A stretch of 63,276 bases of DNA, counting the filler, from Globobulimina sp. (lineage: Eukaryota), in assembly GCA_003354225.1 (NCBI GenBank). It is 52 parts of 52 records of this genome, joined end to end, with 100 filler letters (N's around TTAATTAATTAA, not from the genome) between each part and the next. Parts side by side here need not be neighbours in the genome. Positions count along the whole stretch, not along the records: positions 19,517 to 20,635 come from PIVH01023014.1; 51 more parts are not named here. One strand, written 5' to 3'. A program made the position numbers and the translations under genes. Of this stretch, positions 7,321 through 59,722 are shown one piece after another. The notes beneath the pieces are model-generated. The model was not told where the DNA came from and did not search any database. It saw nothing but the letters and a program-made list of their open reading frames with translations. The stretch's first letter is position 1. Each line of letters begins with the position of its first letter.

Positions 7321-8393
7321 TCCTGGAAAGATTAAGAAACAAACATAACTGGATCAGTGAATTCATGCAGCTGAAGCATGCTATTCCAAAACCGTGGAAA
7401 CAGATGCTTCAAAATCTGACTGCCGAACTACCACAACAAACAAACCTAATTCCCTATCACAAACATCTAAAATATAAAAACTGTACACTTTACATTGACA
7501 GTAATGAAATTACAGACATAACAAAACACAGTAAAGATATTTACTACCATATATTATATCCTGCCAAACCCCCACCATGTACACAGAAGTGGGAAGACAA
7601 ACTACAAACAACATTTGACTGGAAAAATATCTTCAACACCATCCAGTCATTAACAAAACATAATAAAATAAAAGAATTCCAATGGAAAGTAATCCATAGG
7701 GCTATATTTACAGAAACAAAACTACAAAAAATGAATAGATCCAATGGATACTGTAAACTCTGTATCATAGATAAGGAGGACATTGAACATCTCCTTTATA
7801 GTTGCCCTAAAATTAAGGAGATATGGTCAATTGTCTCACAATTTATTCTGAACATAACAGGCTCAGTAGTTCAAATTGGTCTCAAAAATGTTCTATTTGG
7901 ACTACCAATATCAATAAATACTGACATTAATATATTTGGTATATTTTTAATAACCACTTCAAACTGGATTATCTGGAAACACAGAAATGAAGTTAAATAT
8001 GGCCAGAAACCAACAAAAACATTAAATGAACTGCTCACTTATATAACATCAACATGGAAAGCAGAAATCAAAATCATACAAAATACAACAAAACGAAAAT
8101 CATATTTTTCTAACATAACTCTAGACTATTTAAGAAAGATTACAGAAATCTGAAAACAAACATATATATTTATATACAACAGTGTGAATAAATGTGAAGT
8201 GTGTGTATGGGCGTGTGTCTCTGTGAGTGTCTGTGTATGAAAGAACTTAGGGGACAACAGACAGACTGATGACTTGACTTGATTGGAAAGGGGGAACCCC
8301 TAGAAATCTGAATTTATAAAAATGTAAACTAAATTTGTTTGATTATTGTAAATAAAGCTCTGTAAATATTTAAAAAAAATAAATAAAAAAAAA
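7321..8393 (+). mobile_element. 3' end of L1/Tx1-like non-LTR retrotransposon: ORF2 zinc-finger region (to 8153), 3' UTR and A-rich tail
   Basis: KIKEFQWKVIHRAI, CKLC...EDIEHLLYSC, WIIWKHRN; AATAAA at 8351 and A-rich tract 8372-8393. Confidence 0.85.
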
Positions 8394-8540: not shown

Positions 8541-9142
8541 CACTACTAGACATCTGTAAAGCATACGATATATTGTGGCGAGAATGACTATGGAAGAAAT
8601 TACGAGATTACGGTTTTCCAGATAAACTAATAAGAGCAATAGAGAGTAGTTACCACAATCCAGGTGCAATATTACAATTTCAAGATCAAAAAACAGAACG
8701 ATTATCAATGAATGTAGGATTACGACAAGGATGTACGATGTCTCCGATATTATGGAATCTATATATAGCAGATTTAGGAAAGGAAATCGAAAATTCAAAT
8801 TTAGGAATATCGATAGGAATTAACAATAATAAGAAAAATATATCAGGAATCTTCTTTGCAGACGACATGTTATTATTTGGCTCTTCCGATTACAATATGA
8901 CTAAATTACTAAAGATTGTTGGTAACTATGCACAGAAATGGAAAATCGAATTTTCCGGTCCAAAAAGTCTTGTTATCCCTATAAGAAGAGAAATCGATAA
9001 CGACAGGAAATGGAAATTAGGAACAATGTTTATCACCGAAAATGAAGAATCAACGATATATATCAAAGAAGAAAAGGAAGCGAAATACTTAGGAATTACG
9101 ATTAGCAAACACAGAACAGATATCCTATCAAAACACAAAATA
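8541..9142 (+). pseudogene. Non-LTR reverse transcriptase fragment with premature stop
   Basis: LDICKAYDILWRE*LWKKL (TGA at 8585 where Gly is usual), GLRQGCTMSPILWN, FADD, KYLGI. Confidence 0.85.
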
Positions 9143-9652
9143 AGTCTAACCGATATCCAAAAAGCGTTTGATCCGGTGAAATACGGACAGTTTTCCAGCG
9201 TACCTTATCTTGATATCCAGATACCTACATTGAGTGATCATTCTCTGGCACCGGTGAACAAACACCTGATGTCCGTTACTGTTAAATATATGCCTTATCG
9301 TTTGCGCAAGGGCAATTGGGACGACTTATCCGATTCACTCGCCGATTTGGTGATGAATACGATAACAGGTTATGCACCTGATTTTTCCGAATGTGTGAAA
9401 GATACGCATGTCATCACACCATTGGACATGGAAACGGATTACAATTTACCCGAAGGCAGTCTAACTCATGGTGATATCACTTTGGATCAATCCCTTTGGA
9501 TGCGCCCCATTCCCGGATACGCAAAATATAACAGTCCGATTCCGGGCCTTTACCTATGCAGTGCTGCCACACACCCCGGTGCCGGTGTAACCGGAATTAA
9601 CGGGTCTAACGCTGCAAAAAGAATTTTAAAGGAAAGGAGCTGGAGCGGATGA
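9143..9652 (+). CDS. C-terminal part of a bacterial-type phytoene-dehydrogenase-like FAD oxidoreductase
   Basis: IPTLSDHSLAP, ITPLDME, RPIPGYAKYNSPIPGLYLCSAATHPGAGVTG; higher GC; ATGA stop/start overlap at 9649-9652 with AAGGAG at 9634-9639. Confidence 0.85.
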   Translation, partial: SLTDIQKAFDPVKYGQFSSVPYLDIQIPTLSDHSLAPVNKHLMSVTVKYMPYRLRKGNWDDLSDSLADLVMNTITGYAPDFSECVKDTHVITPLDMETDYNLPEGSLTHGDITLDQSLWMRPIPGYAKYNSPIPGLYLCSAATHPGAGVTGINGSNAAKRILKERSWSG

Positions 9653-12742: not shown

Positions 12743-13140
12743 TCAGAGATTTTAAATCTCTATTTCCGGTCAAATCACACTAATTCGGGCAAATCAGAGA
12801 TTTTAAATCTCTATTTCCGGTCAAATCAGAGCTTTAAAATCTATATTTCCGCTCAAATCAGAGATTTTAAATCTCTATTTCCGGTCAAATCAGAGATTTT
12901 AAATTTTTTAAATCTCTATTTCCGGTCAAATCAGAGATTTTAAATCTCTATTTCCGGTCAAATCAGAGATTTTAAATCTCTATTTCCGGTCAAATCAGAG
13001 ATTTTAAATCTACATTTCCGGGCAAATCAGTGATTTTAAATCTCTATTTCCGGTCAAATCAGAGATTTTAAATCACTAATTCCGGGCAAATCAGAGATTT
13101 TAAATCTCTATTTCCGGATAAATCAGAGATTTTAAATCTG
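12743..13140. repeat. Minisatellite, ~12 copies of a 32-bp unit with palindromic core
   Basis: Unit TCAGAGATTTTAAATCTCTATTTCCGGTCAAA; core AGAGATTT-T-AAATCTCT; isolated cores near 12495 and 12575. Confidence 0.95.
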
Positions 13141-18197: not shown

Positions 18198-18477
18198 NNN
18201 NNNNNNNNNNNNNNNNNNNNNNNNNNNNNNNNNNNNNNNNNTTAATTAATTAANNNNNNNNNNNNNNNNNNNNNNNNNNNNNNNNNNNNNNNNNNNNGAG
18301 CAGTATGCAAATTTATGATACAATAATTTAGAATTTAACAAAACTATTTTTTCATCGTACATACATATTATAACAGTTAGTTAGTCATCAAAGAAAAGAT
18401 TTTTTTTAATCGAAACAATATACTGTACGTAATTCAATAAAACCATTACAAACTATCGACAAGAACGTTAAAAAGCG

Positions 18478-18654
18478 ACAACATTGTATGTAGCTTTCTT
18501 TAGTCAATACAAAATTCCAAAAAATGGAATAATCATTTTGTAATGACTATTTTTACACCATAGAAAGCTACAACATTGTATGTAGCTTTCTTTAGTCAAT
18601 ACAAAATTCCAAAAAATGGAATAATCATTTTGTAATAACTTTTTTTACACCATA
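18478..18654. repeat. ~85-bp near-tandem duplication
   Basis: ACAACATTGTATGTAGCTTTC...TACACCATA at 18478-18562 and 18570-18654. Confidence 0.92.
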
Positions 18655-19416: not shown

Positions 19417-19516
19417 NNNNNNNNNNNNNNNNNNNNNNNNNNNNNNNNNNNNNNNNNNNNTTAATTAATTAANNNNNNNNNNNNNNNNNNNNNNNNNNNN
19501 NNNNNNNNNNNNNNNN

Positions 19517-20635
19517 GATGTAGCCACAATTATTAATCACGTAATAAATTCGGACAAAATGAATCGTCCATCATGCTCTAATTGGTGTGTAAAATATAAC
19601 TATGAATATGATGAAAACAGTGATAATTTTGATATTAAATCTAAATCATTGGATTATGATTTATTTTGGAGCTGCAGTTTATATTTTTGTTTGTTCAAAA
19701 CATGTGGGATTCTTAACTATGATGATGATTTTAAACAAATTCTGAATCCAAATACCAATATATTTAAAAATCTGAGTAATAAATCTGAGAATTGTGAGAT
19801 GAAAAACCAATCGTTTTATCACAATGAGAATGATGTATTTGTACCTAAAGTAGGAAAAGATGGTTGCAGACATCATATTTGTACACGTTGGTGTCAACAA
19901 GATAAAGTTTTGTGTTTATATAATGACTGACTGACTGACACAGACTCAAATCATGGAATGGATGCACACAATGCTAAGTCACGGTGTCAAGCCATGGGAT
20001 TTTGATGAAGCAGATGCGTTATGGGATGGATTACATCCTGATCCTGATGAAATGGATACAGATGAATTAAAGAATTATGATCCAGACAGTTACTTTGATA
20101 CTCACGAAATTCCGAAATTACGAGCAAAGCCATTCAACATAAACGACGATTTTGATCAAATATTATCACAAAGAAGAAATGCATTAATTAATATGGGAGT
20201 TATTACATTAAAATTATCAAACTTGATAAGTGCAAATGCATCAACTAATAAATCACAAAATGATGACGCAATTTCTATTTTAAATTCCGATGAGATAAAA
20301 AAATCAATTGAAAAACACAAATTAAAGGAACCAAAGGAACAGTCTCCGAAATTTAAATCAAAACCCAAAGATAATTCCGATGATGCGGCAAATGACTCAT
20401 TTACATGGATTGATGAAAGGCAGTATCCACACCTTCATTTTTGTGATTCTTATCCATTAAAATGTAAATGGATTGATATTAATAATAATATTCATTTTGA
20501 ATATTTTCAATTGTATGATGTAGCCACAATTATTAATCACGTAATAAATTCGGACAAAATGAATCGTCCATCATGCTCTAATTGGTGTGTAAAATATAAC
20601 TATGAATATGATGAAAACAGTGATAATTTTGATAT
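19517..20635. repeat. Self-closing contig: 1000-bp unit with 119-nt terminal direct repeat
   Basis: 19517-19635 identical to 20517-20635. Confidence 0.96.
19953..20635 (+). CDS. Hypothetical protein wrapping across the circular junction (325 aa unspliced, stop at 19928-19930)
   Basis: Frame continues in phase from 20516 into 19517-19930. Confidence 0.7.
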
Positions 20636-20735
20636 NNNNNNNNNNNNNNNNNNNNNNNNNNNNNNNNNNNNNNNNNNNNTTAATTAATTAANNNNNNNNN
20701 NNNNNNNNNNNNNNNNNNNNNNNNNNNNNNNNNNN

Positions 20736-24392: not shown

Positions 24393-24505
24393 GTTAGATA
24401 GAGTGGTTTTCAACTTCGAATACTAGGTTGAAAACCACTCTATCTAACCCAAAAACCTTGCCAATCACAAAAGAAGTGTTTAGAAGTGTGAACCTAAAAA
24501 GTCAA
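24393..24505. repeat. Dispersed repeat copy A: 22-bp perfect inverted repeat, 12-nt loop, conserved tail
   Basis: GTTAGATAGAGTGGTTTTCAAC-TTCGAATACTAG-GTTGAAAACCACTCTATCTAAC; tail shared with 52496-52552. Confidence 0.93.
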
Positions 24506-24577
24506 TTGTTTCCATAACTTTCTGTTTTAGTTTTTGTTCTGTCGCTTCTGTGCTTCGTTGAGATACTCTAAATTAAA

Positions 24578-25275
24578 TTAACGCATATAAAACTCAGAGA
24601 TGCCACTGTTTTCAACAAGATGTTGCTCAGAATTTGGCAGGTTAGATTTGATGAATCGCATGGCAGCCATTGCGAGCTCATCAACATGTATCACCGGCAT
24701 AAGCCAGGAATATATTTCCCAATGGTTTCTAAAGGAATAGCCTTTGTTTCAGAAATATATCGTTTCCCTGTAACCATTCCAGGCCGAAAGCAAACTCCGT
24801 TATCACCAAAGTGCACATCAACAGACTCTTCAGCCCTTTGTTTACCGTTGAAGTATCCGGGAATTGTAATAAATCTGAGCGGATTCCATTTGGTTAACAA
24901 ATGAGAGGGTCGCCACGCGGATATAAAGACAAAACGATGAATATTATTTTCTTTCGCCAAATTGCAAGCATTTATATTGGTGTCACCGCATATTTTGTTC
25001 ATGACAGAATTTTTCCAATGAAAACAACCAACGCACGATATAACTGCCCGAATATTTTTATCCTTATTGTTAAAATATGGTCTCATTGAATCAATTTTGA
25101 GTGCATCTCCTTTGCTCCATTGCACTTGTTCTGCCCAAACAGATGAAGATAACCAAGACGGCCTCACTCCTGATCTAGATATTGAGATAACTTCAAATCC
25201 ACTTAATATGGCTTGTTCACACATTCTAGAACCAATATATCCATTACCACCAATAACAACAACAATCTCTGACAT
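24578..25275 (-). CDS. NAD(P)-binding atypical SDR (epimerase/Coq11-like), frameshift near 24700-24720
   Basis: GGNGYIG, ISRSG, YFNGKQRAE, RPG; C-terminus MPVIHVDELAMAA lies in a shifted frame ending TAA at 24578. Confidence 0.85.
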
Positions 25276-25981
25276 TGTTTAATTAGACCGGAAATTTTCC
25301 GAAAGTTCTGTCGTGGCAAGATTTCAGAGTCAGTTTCAAAAACATTAGGACAAAAACTACATATATCCGTACATAGAAATTTTGATCATATATATCTATA
25401 TATGATTATTAAGTAAAAGACTGTGTAGTTTATAGTGTGAATTAGTTGTAACTATATTTTATTAATTTCACTGAGCTTTCGGCTGTCTTAAAGAAGCCAT
25501 TGTCAAAGTGTNNNNNNNNNNNNNNNNNNNNNNNNNNNNNNNNNNNNNNNNNNNNTTAATTAATTAANNNNNNNNNNNNNNNNNNNNNNNNNNNNNNNNN
25601 NNNNNNNNNNNTGACAGCAAAAGACAACGAATAGAAAAAAGCATATCGTGGACTAAAAATGAAATAAAAGAAGCATAGCGAATTTTAATATGGTTCGCAT
25701 TCTATTGATTCCATTCAGTAATACACAATTTTGAAATGTAATATAATAACCACAGTGGTACCAGTTTGCATACATAATTTTTGATGTTTTTTAAAAATTT
25801 TCTAAAAGTTTTCAGCTTAGTACTAAACAAGTCATCCATACGCAGATCCAAACAGGTTAACTCGTGTCTTATTACAAAGCTAGATTTTATTGCGAATTTG
25901 CTAAGGTTGTGTTGTCAAAAAAATAAAAGATTTCTCTTGAAATCCGACATGATTCATTTGGCGAATAGTAATCAGATTTCA

Positions 25982-41452: not shown

Positions 41453-42570
41453 AAGGCGCAGGAGAATGTGGTGGGCCATTTGGTGGAGACGAATGAGTGG
41501 TTATTTAGCGCGTTGCAGAGTACTTTGCAGACCGGAGGGCCCACGTTGGCTACGGCGAGTATATCGAGTCACAATTTGCCGGGCTTGAAATGATATATAT
41601 TGTGGTGCTGACTTGTGGTGTTTTTTTGTTGTTGTTGTATTGTGAATTTTATATTGTTTTTCTTTTTTTGTTTTGTTATAAAATTACATTCGCATAATTT
41701 ATGTTCATATTTTATATTTTTTCAGTTGAGGTTTTAACTTTTAATCGAGGTTTTTTTGGCTATTGAAAATAATGTCACTAGCAACTGTTCTTGCATTTAT
41801 AACAATAATCTGGCTTATTATCTGTATTTGTTGTAATGTTTGTTTTTCAGTTTGAAACTTTTTTGAATTCATTCAGTTTGAAACTGTATCATTTTAACAA
41901 AGGCAGAGATGGATAGCATGGGATATGGCGGCGGCGGGTACGGAGTCGACGCGTCGTTCGAGTCTAGCAACAAAATGAAAGGCAAAGACATCTCTCATTT
42001 GAAAAAGTCAGTGTTGGACAAGTTGGCGTATTTGGACGAAGAGTCGGATGACGACTTCGGTGAATTGGACGACATGTTTGTGACGGGAATGGGTGACAGT
42101 TTGGAGGCGGATTTGGAGAAAGAGTTAAATTTGGCGTTCCGCAAAGATCGCAAAGGCGGCGCGGCCAAATTGTTGCAAGACGCGGTCGGCGTGGATTACG
42201 ACGCGGAGACTGAGGAGAAATTGTACAACGACATGGATATGGACGACTTGGTGGCGCATTTGGACGATACTTTGGCGATGGCGGATATGGAGATTGATGA
42301 CATCGGGGCGCAGCAGCAGGCCATGGCGATGATGTTGGACGACCAAATCAATCTGGATTTCGAGAATATGAACACTGAGGAGGTGGTGCAACATGTGGAG
42401 GAGACGTGGACGGAGATCGAGGAGAATAAGGAGGAGCAGGAAGTGCTTAAAAAGGCGCAGGAGAATGTGGTGGGCCATTTGGTGGAGACGAATGAGTGGT
42501 TATTTAGCGCGTTGCAGAGTACTTTGCAGACCGGAGGGCCCACGTTGGCTACGGCGAGTATATCGAGTCA
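41453..42570. repeat. Self-closing contig: 999-bp unit with 119-nt terminal direct repeat
   Basis: 41453-41571 identical to 42452-42570. Confidence 0.96.
41909..42570 (+). CDS. Highly acidic hypothetical protein, 227 aa once wrapped (stop at 41591-41593)
   Basis: GC3-rich ORF continues in frame through the junction to ...SSHNLPGLK*. Confidence 0.8.
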
Positions 42571-52414: not shown

Positions 52415-52552
52415 AGAGTGGTTTTCAACCTAGTATTCGAAGTTGTCCTAGTATTCGAATCCTAGTATTCAAAGTTGAAAACCACTCTAGCTAACCCAAA
52501 AACCTTGCCAATCACAAAAGAAGTTTTTAGAAGTTTAAGCCTAAAAAGTCAA
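52415..52552. repeat. Dispersed repeat copy B (family of 24393-24505) with inverted, triplicated loop
   Basis: AGAGTGGTTTTCAAC, three CTAGTATTC(G/A)AA units, GTTGAAAACCACTCT, then shared tail. Confidence 0.93.
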
Positions 52553-52695
52553 ATGTATACAAGGGAGATATATCGTTGAGTTGGATTTGTTTATTTTGTT
52601 ATAGGTTCGCATAAAAACTGACTGAATTGTATACAAATATGTTGAATAAAAAATTGATATCCAATCAAAAAAAATGCTGTGCTTGTTCTGTATCA

Positions 52696-53322
52696 TTAAC
52701 CAGTTACGAAATAATATATCATTCTCTGAATGCCATCAGTAATATTTATCTGATATCCAAGCTTTGTGCCTTTTATATATCCAGCTATCAATAAAAGCCT
52801 TCTCCAGTCACCATTTGTATATTGCTTAGAATCAAATATTTGTTTTATTAGCGTAAATTCACTGTTAATACAATATATTGCAATCCCACACTGTTCCTTG
52901 TATACTATGAATCGTTTATATTGTTTCTGTGTTTTGTTCCTAAATTCACAAACATTATTCGCCATATCCAACATGATACAAACAATATCGCTTTCGCTAA
53001 ATCCAAATTCTGCAGTTCCAGACATTGCAGTTCCCTCAAATCCACAAATATATCCAGATTCAGTAAAACGTACTCGAAAGCTCGGAATCATGATCCAATC
53101 CTCGTGTTTATTGCCACCTCTCCACGTCGCAAACTGTTGGCCGATGATACATAGTCCCGAAGTGTTATCCAATCGATCAAACTTTATCTCAATGGCGCAA
53201 AACCCTTTTTCCATCATTTGAGCAAACAAAATGGTGCCATATTCCTTGTTGTCTGGCGAATTGACCGTGAATCCATTGTTGGAAACAGTGAGAGAGGGAT
53301 GGCATTCTGCAAACTTGGCCAA
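52696..53322 (-). CDS. SPRY/B30.2-like beta-sandwich protein
   Basis: GFSESDIVCIMLDMANNVCEFRN; C-terminal LLIAGYIK motif. Confidence 0.5.
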   Translation of the reverse strand: MAKFAECHPSLTVSNNGFTVNSPDNKEYGTILFAQMMEKGFCAIEIKFDRLDNTSGLCIIGQQFATWRGGNKHEDWIMIPSFRVRFTESGYICGFEGTAMSGTAEFGFSESDIVCIMLDMANNVCEFRNKTQKQYKRFIVYKEQCGIAIYCINSEFTLIKQIFDSKQYTNGDWRRLLLIAGYIKGTKLGYQINITDGIQRMIYYFVTG

Positions 53323-53632
53323 AGCTATTTAGATGAATTGAAGCAGTTTAATAAATAAAACATTAATGGCTGCATTCACTGGCAAATGGCAATGCAGTAC
53401 CTGGATAACAGAATTTGTAGCAAATATCGCAAATGACAGCAGCTACGCCTTGCCGTATACAAAAAGCTGCTTCTGCACAATGTATGTATCCCTCCACAAG
53501 CAACAAATATCGATGCTTGTCTGCTTCCCGCANNNNNNNNNNNNNNNNNNNNNNNNNNNNNNNNNNNNNNNNNNNNTTAATTAATTAANNNNNNNNNNNN
53601 NNNNNNNNNNNNNNNNNNNNNNNNNNNNNNNN

Positions 53633-58364: not shown

Positions 58365-58931
58365 TTGTAGGGTACTGTAGGGGCATTTTACCGCTGTATT
58401 TTGCNNNNNNNNNNNNNNNNNNNNNNNNNNNNNNNNNNNNNNNNNNNNTTAATTAATTAANNNNNNNNNNNNNNNNNNNNNNNNNNNNNNNNNNNNNNNN
58501 NNNNGTGTTTAAAAAAAAATTGAAATCAATGCTTGGTTTGACTGTGTTGGTACTTTTATCATCATTTGTTTGCTGATTCTCCATTACGAATTAATTCGTG
58601 GTCGAACGAAATGATACAAAGTATGGTAATGTGGGAAAAATGTGAAGTTCGAGAAATAAACAAAAACAATTGACTAATACTAACTAAGTTCGGAGGTTAA
58701 ACATTCGAAAGCATGTCACTTTTTAAGTCACTTCTAGCCGAGATTGGATTTTTAAACTACGATAGCGGTTTATACACGAAACATCTATGCAACATAAGCA
58801 TACGCTATCTTGGTTTAAAAGCAATCTCAAAAACAACAGGCGATTTTAGACAAAAAAGCAAAAAAAAAGCAAACAGAAATCACAGATATAGCCATTGGAC
58901 GTCGTGTGGACCATATTGGGATTGATTAAAA

Positions 58932-59591
58932 TTGGATTTAAAATTAAAAAAATCAACATTCACCTCAAAACCATTGCAAATTGCAATCACCATTAATAAT
59001 CCTAACAATAAAATCAAAACGTATATTCATTATTATACTCCAAAATCAATAAATTGGAGGATTCAACAATTGTACATAGAATTACATCGGGTTAGATTCA
59101 ACCCGATATACGTATTTTGCCAGGCATTGCCATTCAAGACATTAATTATTGCATTTCAAGAAGAAAAAGCAGAATTCATTCGAGACAATTTATTAATTCA
59201 AGATCAAAGGCTATTAACATTCCGTGAAACATTTACATATTTTTATTTGTTGATATTAGTCCTCTTCGCCGACGTGGTATTTGACTCACCGCTGTATATA
59301 CACACTGTTCAATTAACATATTTTGATTACATTACTCAATTTTATCCATATTTTATCGGACCACAACGAGGGTCAGAAAAAGAGACGTATACAGTAAATA
59401 CGTACAACATCATTGAACAATTTACAAGAGGGGTAATACCATCAGATATTATTAGTTTCATACATACATTTTTATTCCCAGAAATCCATAGTCTCAGACA
59501 ATTGGATTATATTTATAACGCTCTCATATCCGAGGCGAAAACCTATTTCAATCGCAACAGAAATATCATATTATCAATAGTCAGGAGGTAA
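58932..59591 (+). CDS. Hypothetical protein
   Basis: 219-aa ORF; IPSDIISFI motif. Confidence 0.4.
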   Translation: MDLKLKKSTFTSKPLQIAITINNPNNKIKTYIHYYTPKSINWRIQQLYIELHRVRFNPIYVFCQALPFKTLIIAFQEEKAEFIRDNLLIQDQRLLTFRETFTYFYLLILVLFADVVFDSPLYIHTVQLTYFDYITQFYPYFIGPQRGSEKETYTVNTYNIIEQFTRGVIPSDIISFIHTFLFPEIHSLRQLDYIYNALISEAKTYFNRNRNIILSIVRR

Positions 59592-59722
59592 TCTGGCAAA
59601 ATAATGAATTCAAACAAGAAACNNNNNNNNNNNNNNNNNNNNNNNNNNNNNNNNNNNNNNNNNNNNTTAATTAATTAANNNNNNNNNNNNNNNNNNNNNN
59701 NNNNNNNNNNNNNNNNNNNNNN

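Follow-up and report, generated by a model that had tools for sequence, protein, structure and literature searches.

A 1000-bp assembly cycle that probably holds the first exon of a linear foraminiferal gene joined head to tail

Does a contig that closes on itself, with one reading frame running nearly all the way round, hold a self-contained circular gene? The question is raised by positions 19517-20635 of a stretch of 63,276 nucleotides from Globobulimina sp. (the window), described in an earlier note as a 1000-bp self-closing unit whose reading frame becomes endless and stop-free after one small splice. Three readings were offered there: (a) a polyprotein gene of near-identical ~321-aa repeats, (b) an extrachromosomal circle capable of rolling transcription and translation, or (c) a fragment of a gene that was circularised and only happens to be in frame. 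Our analysis supports the last. The stretch is a short contig representing a closed cycle, which probably holds exon 1 of a linear foraminiferal gene joined head to tail. The parts of this contig described below are on the plus strand; the artificial linkers have no strand.

The window consists of 52 contigs sorted by length, from 1120 to 1118 bp, with 51 identical artificial linkers of 100 nt between them; features that cross a linker are not real. Positions 19517-20635 are one entire contig of 1119 bp, with 19517 and 20635 as its two ends, and are bordered by non-biological linkers at 19417-19516 (an N run, TTAATTAATTAA and a second N run) and 20636-20735. As the earlier note had stated, the first and last 119 nt (19517-19635 and 20517-20635) were identical at 100%, giving a period of 1000. 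A terminal overlap of exactly 119 nt was present in two of the 52 contigs, this one and the contig at 41453-42570; the other 50 were without a terminal overlap of 15-200 nt. Since a second contig has the 119-nt overlap too, the overlap in 19517-20635 is the signature of an assembler cycle, that is, a closed path in the k-mer graph. The length of 119 nt is thus a property of the assembly, and the point at which the contig breaks is arbitrary and not a real junction. We take the overlap to correspond to k = 119 of a common metagenome assembler. The period is 1119 minus 119, a round figure without meaning; at this point in the length-sorted list, any cycle contig must have a period of 999-1001.

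Public sequencing runs were compared with the stretch as assembled contigs, not as raw reads. The window assembly may derive from one of these runs, X1, in which 99% of the sampled words were present. The Logan assembly of X1 (k=31) contained the same closed de Bruijn cycle in a contig of 1030 nt (1000 + 30), in which the joint from 20516 to 19517 goes back 1000. The X1 reads are probably the same as those of the window assembly, so this reproduction of the cycle is not independent biology.

The assembly is a highly fragmented one of a eukaryote, most likely a foraminiferan or a sample in which one dominates. GC content ranged from 0.27 to 0.47 across the 52 contigs, which suggests a mixed or very heterogeneous source. 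The second cycle, at 41453-42570, repeats every 999 bp, is richer in GC (0.445), and has one acidic ORF of ~236 codons from stop to stop, with ~290 nt left non-coding; a Pfam match at E ≤ 1e-5 was not found for this contig, which may come from a different organism in the sample. Other contigs in the window encode eukaryotic domains (reverse transcriptase, PH, protein kinase, PPR, MFS, and polysaccharide deacetylase). The non-LTR-type reverse transcriptase gene fragments (zf-RVT, RVT_1), at 7365-8153 and 8708-9652 on two contigs, are remnants of retroelements of the source genome. We also observed a 32-nt unit in tandem at 12786-13139 (10.8 copies, 87% matches) and, in the contig next to 19517-20635, two tandem copies of a 92-nt unit at 18469-18652 (96% identical). 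Two contig pairs, 1-1120 with 58505-59622 and 24393-25511 with 52415-53532, have stretches of 83-92 nt in common at 91-93% identity, which are probably dispersed short repeats.

When the contig is read as a circle, one ORF starts at the ATG at 19953, crosses 20516/19517, and ends at the TGA at 19928-19930, giving 325 codons plus the stop. It occupies 978 of the 1000 nt and leaves 22 nt between stop and ATG, exactly as the earlier note had counted. Apart from the size of the unit and its single large ORF, nothing in it would suit a small viral, satellite, or plasmid replicon, for instance a ~1-kb circle resembling those of nanoviruses or alphasatellites.

To find relatives of the ORF, we used HMMER in a profile-free search of 1.84 billion representative proteins. 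Six matches were returned, and four were judged to be true relatives: P0003 (E = 5e-33), P0005 (1e-18), P0004 (8e-17), and P0006 (6e-13). We discounted the remaining two, P0007 and P0008, which are long and repetitive and matched on short stretches only. The match to P0003 at E = 5e-33 shows that the ORF is genuine coding sequence. P0003-P0006 are EukProt proteins of Foraminifera, from Nonionella stella, Bolivina argentea (two), and Elphidium margaritaceum. They are 34-42% identical to the window ORF and colinear with it from the same start Met, and motifs common to the family and the ORF include the KCKWID..HFEYF and KSKSLDYDLFWSC blocks. The start Met of the window ORF is also that of P0003, whose N terminus matches the one encoded by the first part of the coding exon, 19953-20516. 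The second part, 19517-19906 (codons 189-318), contains the most conserved block of the family and ends in ..CQQDK. Since all four relatives are colinear across 20516/19517, this position is not a junction.

The relatives also revealed where the gene continues. P0004 (536 aa) and P0005 (530 aa) each run ~235 aa past the C-x3-C motif at which the unit closes, indicating that the unit holds only the first half of the gene. Residues 291-423 of P0004 weakly match the same region of the window (E = 0.005); the second half of P0004 and P0005 is a diverged repeat of the first, and the proteins have a two-repeat architecture. Unlike these relatives, the window copy ends after the first of the two internal repeats. 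When the relatives were compared to the window with tblastn, only the contig at 19517-20635 matched: the second repeat and C-terminal half were absent from the window, and residues from ~290 on had no match in it except the weak self-repeat echo. From the alignment, we take the ORF to represent the opening ~318 codons of a gene so far known from Foraminifera alone. The earlier note had set a linear homolog with an in-gene junction against its own proposal of an endless unit, and P0004 and P0005 are linear, longer than the unit, and colinear with it on both sides of the contig break, which places the head-to-tail junction inside a gene.

The profile and structure search of the 321-aa unit that had been proposed was productive in part. 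Relatives were found with HMMER, but neither a known family nor a usable fold emerged. Pfam, PHROGs, and Rfam searches of the unit gave no family; one Pfam match at E = 0.26 was discounted. In Pfam, the four relatives matched nothing but DUF4617, at E = 0.009 and below its cut-off, and an ESM Atlas search with P0005 gave no usable match. An AlphaFold2 model of P0004, built from a 6-row alignment, had a mean pLDDT of 38.4, too poor for a fold search. Scans of JGI metagenome contigs and of IMG/VR yielded 262 and 29 pattern matches, respectively, none of which was confirmed. A word-based homolog search with 19517-19906 returned nothing and missed the known relatives too, making it uninformative.

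These searches count heavily against a small replicon. With no Pfam or PHROGs family, there is no Rep-like domain in the unit; none of the 21 matches in the window to the origin nonanucleotide ANTATTAC lies inside 19517-20635; no IMG/VR relative was confirmed; and the sole relatives of the ORF are cellular proteins from foraminiferal transcriptomes. The first three of these results contradict a nanovirus-type single-stranded DNA circle. We consider a replicon of any of these types next to impossible.

Where the exon ends was suggested by a run from another study that carries the same organism label, X3. A 1074-nt contig of X3 matches 19620-19907 with 14 differences in 288 nt (95% identical), leaves the unit exactly at the GT of 19907, and is then unlike the unit. 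In the next 30 letters, the frame stays open and encodes AMDPQAWFAD, which, read by eye, matches MDEQQWF at the homologous place in P0004 at 5 of 7 residues. That X3 is RNA is a guess, and none of the runs listed as containing the stretch is labelled RNA. We propose that 19906|19907 is probably the end of exon 1 and that the 22 nt from the GT, 19907-19928, are probably the start of intron 1. On the simplest reading, the TGA at 19928-19930 is merely the first intron stop met on read-through. If X3 is DNA, the break at 19907 would be a paralog difference and not a splice site.

This result divides the GT-AG intron that had been proposed at 19907-19943. The donor gains support, in that X3 diverges there, with the reading of X3 as RNA being a guess. 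The acceptor does not, as X3 goes not to 19944 but to a downstream coding segment outside the unit; with one contig, this is a weak test.

At least two further variants of the gene occur under the same organism label in the region 19620-19907, one in X3 and one in X2. X2 contains only a 182-nt piece, with two differences from the window that are both common to X3; at 19759, X2 keeps the window's base. These variants could be either paralogs or strain variation. The 12 differences listed for X3 fall in 11 codons (4 synonymous, 7 non-synonymous), too few to judge decay of the window copy.

The opposite flank was identified in X1. In an 88-nt contig of this run, the first 58 letters are unlike the unit and the last 30 are identical to 19929-19958, so that a linear upstream context joins the unit at 19929. 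We interpret 19929-19952, the 24 nt between this point and the ATG, as a remnant of the 5′ flank, since they are common to the unit and to a contig that arrives from unrelated upstream sequence. Both 30-letter loose ends, the X3 exit and the X1 entry, were absent from the window at up to 3 mismatches. A contig leaving the unit on its 3′ side was not seen among the assembled contigs of X1. Mean word depth in X1 was 13.4 for the cycle and 4.8 for the entering contig, a ratio of ~2.8 that is not a copy number. X4, a run from the same sample as X1, did not cover the stretch, which is not proof of absence.

The flanks would thus meet at 19928|19929. This head-to-tail junction lies within a (GACT)3GAC microrepeat at 19925-19939, the sole such run in the window (its two matches overlap, and both are here), which puts a TGA in all three frames. 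If this placement is correct, the cycle would consist of a 318-codon first coding exon together with 24 nt of 5′ flank and 22 nt that most likely belong to intron 1, with the flanks joined head to tail within the short (GACT)n repeat. The 325-aa ORF that appears to fill the circle would be exon 1 read on into the intron to the first stop. The argument that 22 nt between stop and ATG are too little for a terminator plus promoter then dissolves, because the stop is in a probable intron and the 24 nt are what is left of the 5′ flank. An alternative placement must be considered. As 19907-19928 and the upstream letters of the entering X1 contig have the 8-mer TTGTGTTT in common and in register, the junction could instead be at 19906|19907; the entering contig would then derive from an allele or a paralog.

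We next consider the endless frame. Removal of the 37 nt at 19907-19943 (GT..AG) gives 963 nt with no stops in that frame, and use of the donor at 19850 instead gives 906 nt that are likewise stop-free; on recomputation, both figures in the earlier note held. The property is not special to 19907-19943, since 12 of the 135 GT..AG pairs around the stop (15 GT and 9 AG sites) likewise close the frame without a stop. Any cycle that consists mostly of one ORF is nearly certain to have it. Without splicing, the circle is not endless, because 1000 cannot be divided by 3.

An endless frame could nonetheless be used if the unit were one of a tandem array in which splicing leads from the donor at 19907 of one unit to the acceptor-like site at 19943 of the following one, yielding in-frame modules of 321 codons. 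Runs of CTGAC followed by AG may resemble a branch site and acceptor, and such runs precede the AG (CTGAC..ACAG) at 19943. The removal of 19907-19943 does leave a multiple of 3 without a stop, the donor is supported by the X3 contig, and the ~2.8-fold depth of the cycle is a weak hint. Against an array, the chance of being in frame is one in three, and the 12 of 135 GT..AG pairs do as well. A 37-nt intron would be far below the average of 87 bp given in Table 1 of PMC13746701 for the only annotated foraminiferal genome. Moreover, the sole continuation seen past 19906 is into a different downstream coding segment, and full-length P0004 and P0005 are two diverged halves rather than iterated identical modules. 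A polyprotein of ~321-aa repeats is likewise left without support. We regard a spliced array as very unlikely. That a junction formed in the cell, whether in an array or in an amplified exon-1 circle, is accompanied by splicing of 19907 to 19943 of the next unit, giving a chain of identical 321-residue modules, is very unlikely too. If true, it would represent the birth of a repeat protein, or else a rolling-circle template that occurs naturally in a lineage with unusual nuclear DNA dynamics.

Closure of the cycle in two assemblies of what are probably the same reads, and an ORF that fills 978 of 1000 nt, would also be accounted for by an autonomous circle of extrachromosomal DNA or of RNA that encodes a 325-aa protein of its own or is translated over and over. 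This ORF, however, is the truncated half of a longer gene, and linear contexts both enter and leave the unit. The length of the unit is not a multiple of 3, a TGA lies in each frame at 19925-19939, and there is no room for a promoter or origin. Rfam gave 0 matches at E up to 1 and therefore no ribozyme, and the predicted RNA fold was unexceptional (z = +0.71; 14 of 20 shuffles fold at least as well), results that also rule against a viroid-like or obelisk-like RNA. We judge an autonomous circle to be extremely unlikely, and the proposed rolling transcription and translation are left without support, as is endless translation in any form.

Returning to exon 1 of a linear gene joined head to tail, how might the junction have arisen? 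Where short direct repeats lie 1 kb apart, three processes are expected to join them head to tail: unequal recombination or slippage in replication, which leaves a tandem duplication; excision of a circle; and template switching during amplification. Here, we infer, the short GACT runs that flank the exon could have been brought together by slippage, recombination, or template switching. This would have happened either in the cell, leaving ~2-3 tandem copies or an excised circle of DNA, or in vitro when the whole genome was amplified. A tandem duplication is a real possibility, if short of probable. An amplification or library chimera is possible. A DNA circle seems rather doubtful. The absence of a 3′-leaving contig in X1 counts somewhat against a simple tandem array, or the linear gene, in that run. 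We also compared the 52 contigs with themselves and with one another by BLAST to look for inverted chimeras, the artefact that amplification most often produces; nothing of note was found except small palindromes, a result that neither shows nor excludes amplification. Whichever the origin, the unit is a gene fragment and not a self-contained circular gene.

These results carry a caution for windows concatenated from short contigs. Where the ends of a contig overlap by the assembler's k, any local head-to-tail junction turns into a "circle", and a cycle unit the size of an exon then looks like a gene filling its own genome. There are also two minor by-products: a small protein family that is so far restricted to Foraminifera, has two internal repeats, and lacks a known domain, and a probable exon-intron boundary of a gene of this family at 19906/19907. 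If the junction is real in vivo, microrepeats on either side of an exon would have mediated its duplication or excision, which is an ordinary way for exons to be duplicated.

How does the unit compare with known systems? Circular RNAs with stop-free, "endless" ORFs include zeta-like viroid-like elements and small circular satellite RNAs. The unit resembles them only in the idea of repeated translation of a closed unit. Unlike them, it is 1000 nt long and not divisible by 3, has a stop at 19928-19930, is without ribozymes or a rod-like fold, and has as its ORF a fragment of a cellular gene. Extrachromosomal circular DNA and local tandem duplications can form between short direct repeats. The unit is like these in being a head-to-tail junction of a 1-kb genic segment inside (GACT)n, here known from contigs alone, one of which enters the unit at 19929.

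Among the chimeras made by multiple displacement amplification, more than 70% of junctions were primed at 2-21 complementary nucleotides and more than 85% were inverted, according to Lasken and Stockwell (2007; PMC1855051). The unit is similar in that its junction is intramolecular, between sites 1 kb apart, and at a short repeat; it differs in that the junction is direct rather than inverted, and amplification of the sample is conjecture. The closest comparison is with the cycle contigs of de Bruijn-graph assemblers, in which the overlap equals k and which arise from circular molecules or collapsed tandem duplications. The fixed overlap of 119 nt in two of 52 contigs and the recurrence of the 19517-20635 cycle with a 30-nt overlap at k=31 are both as in these contigs, and we found no difference. 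They are a direct description of 19517-20635.
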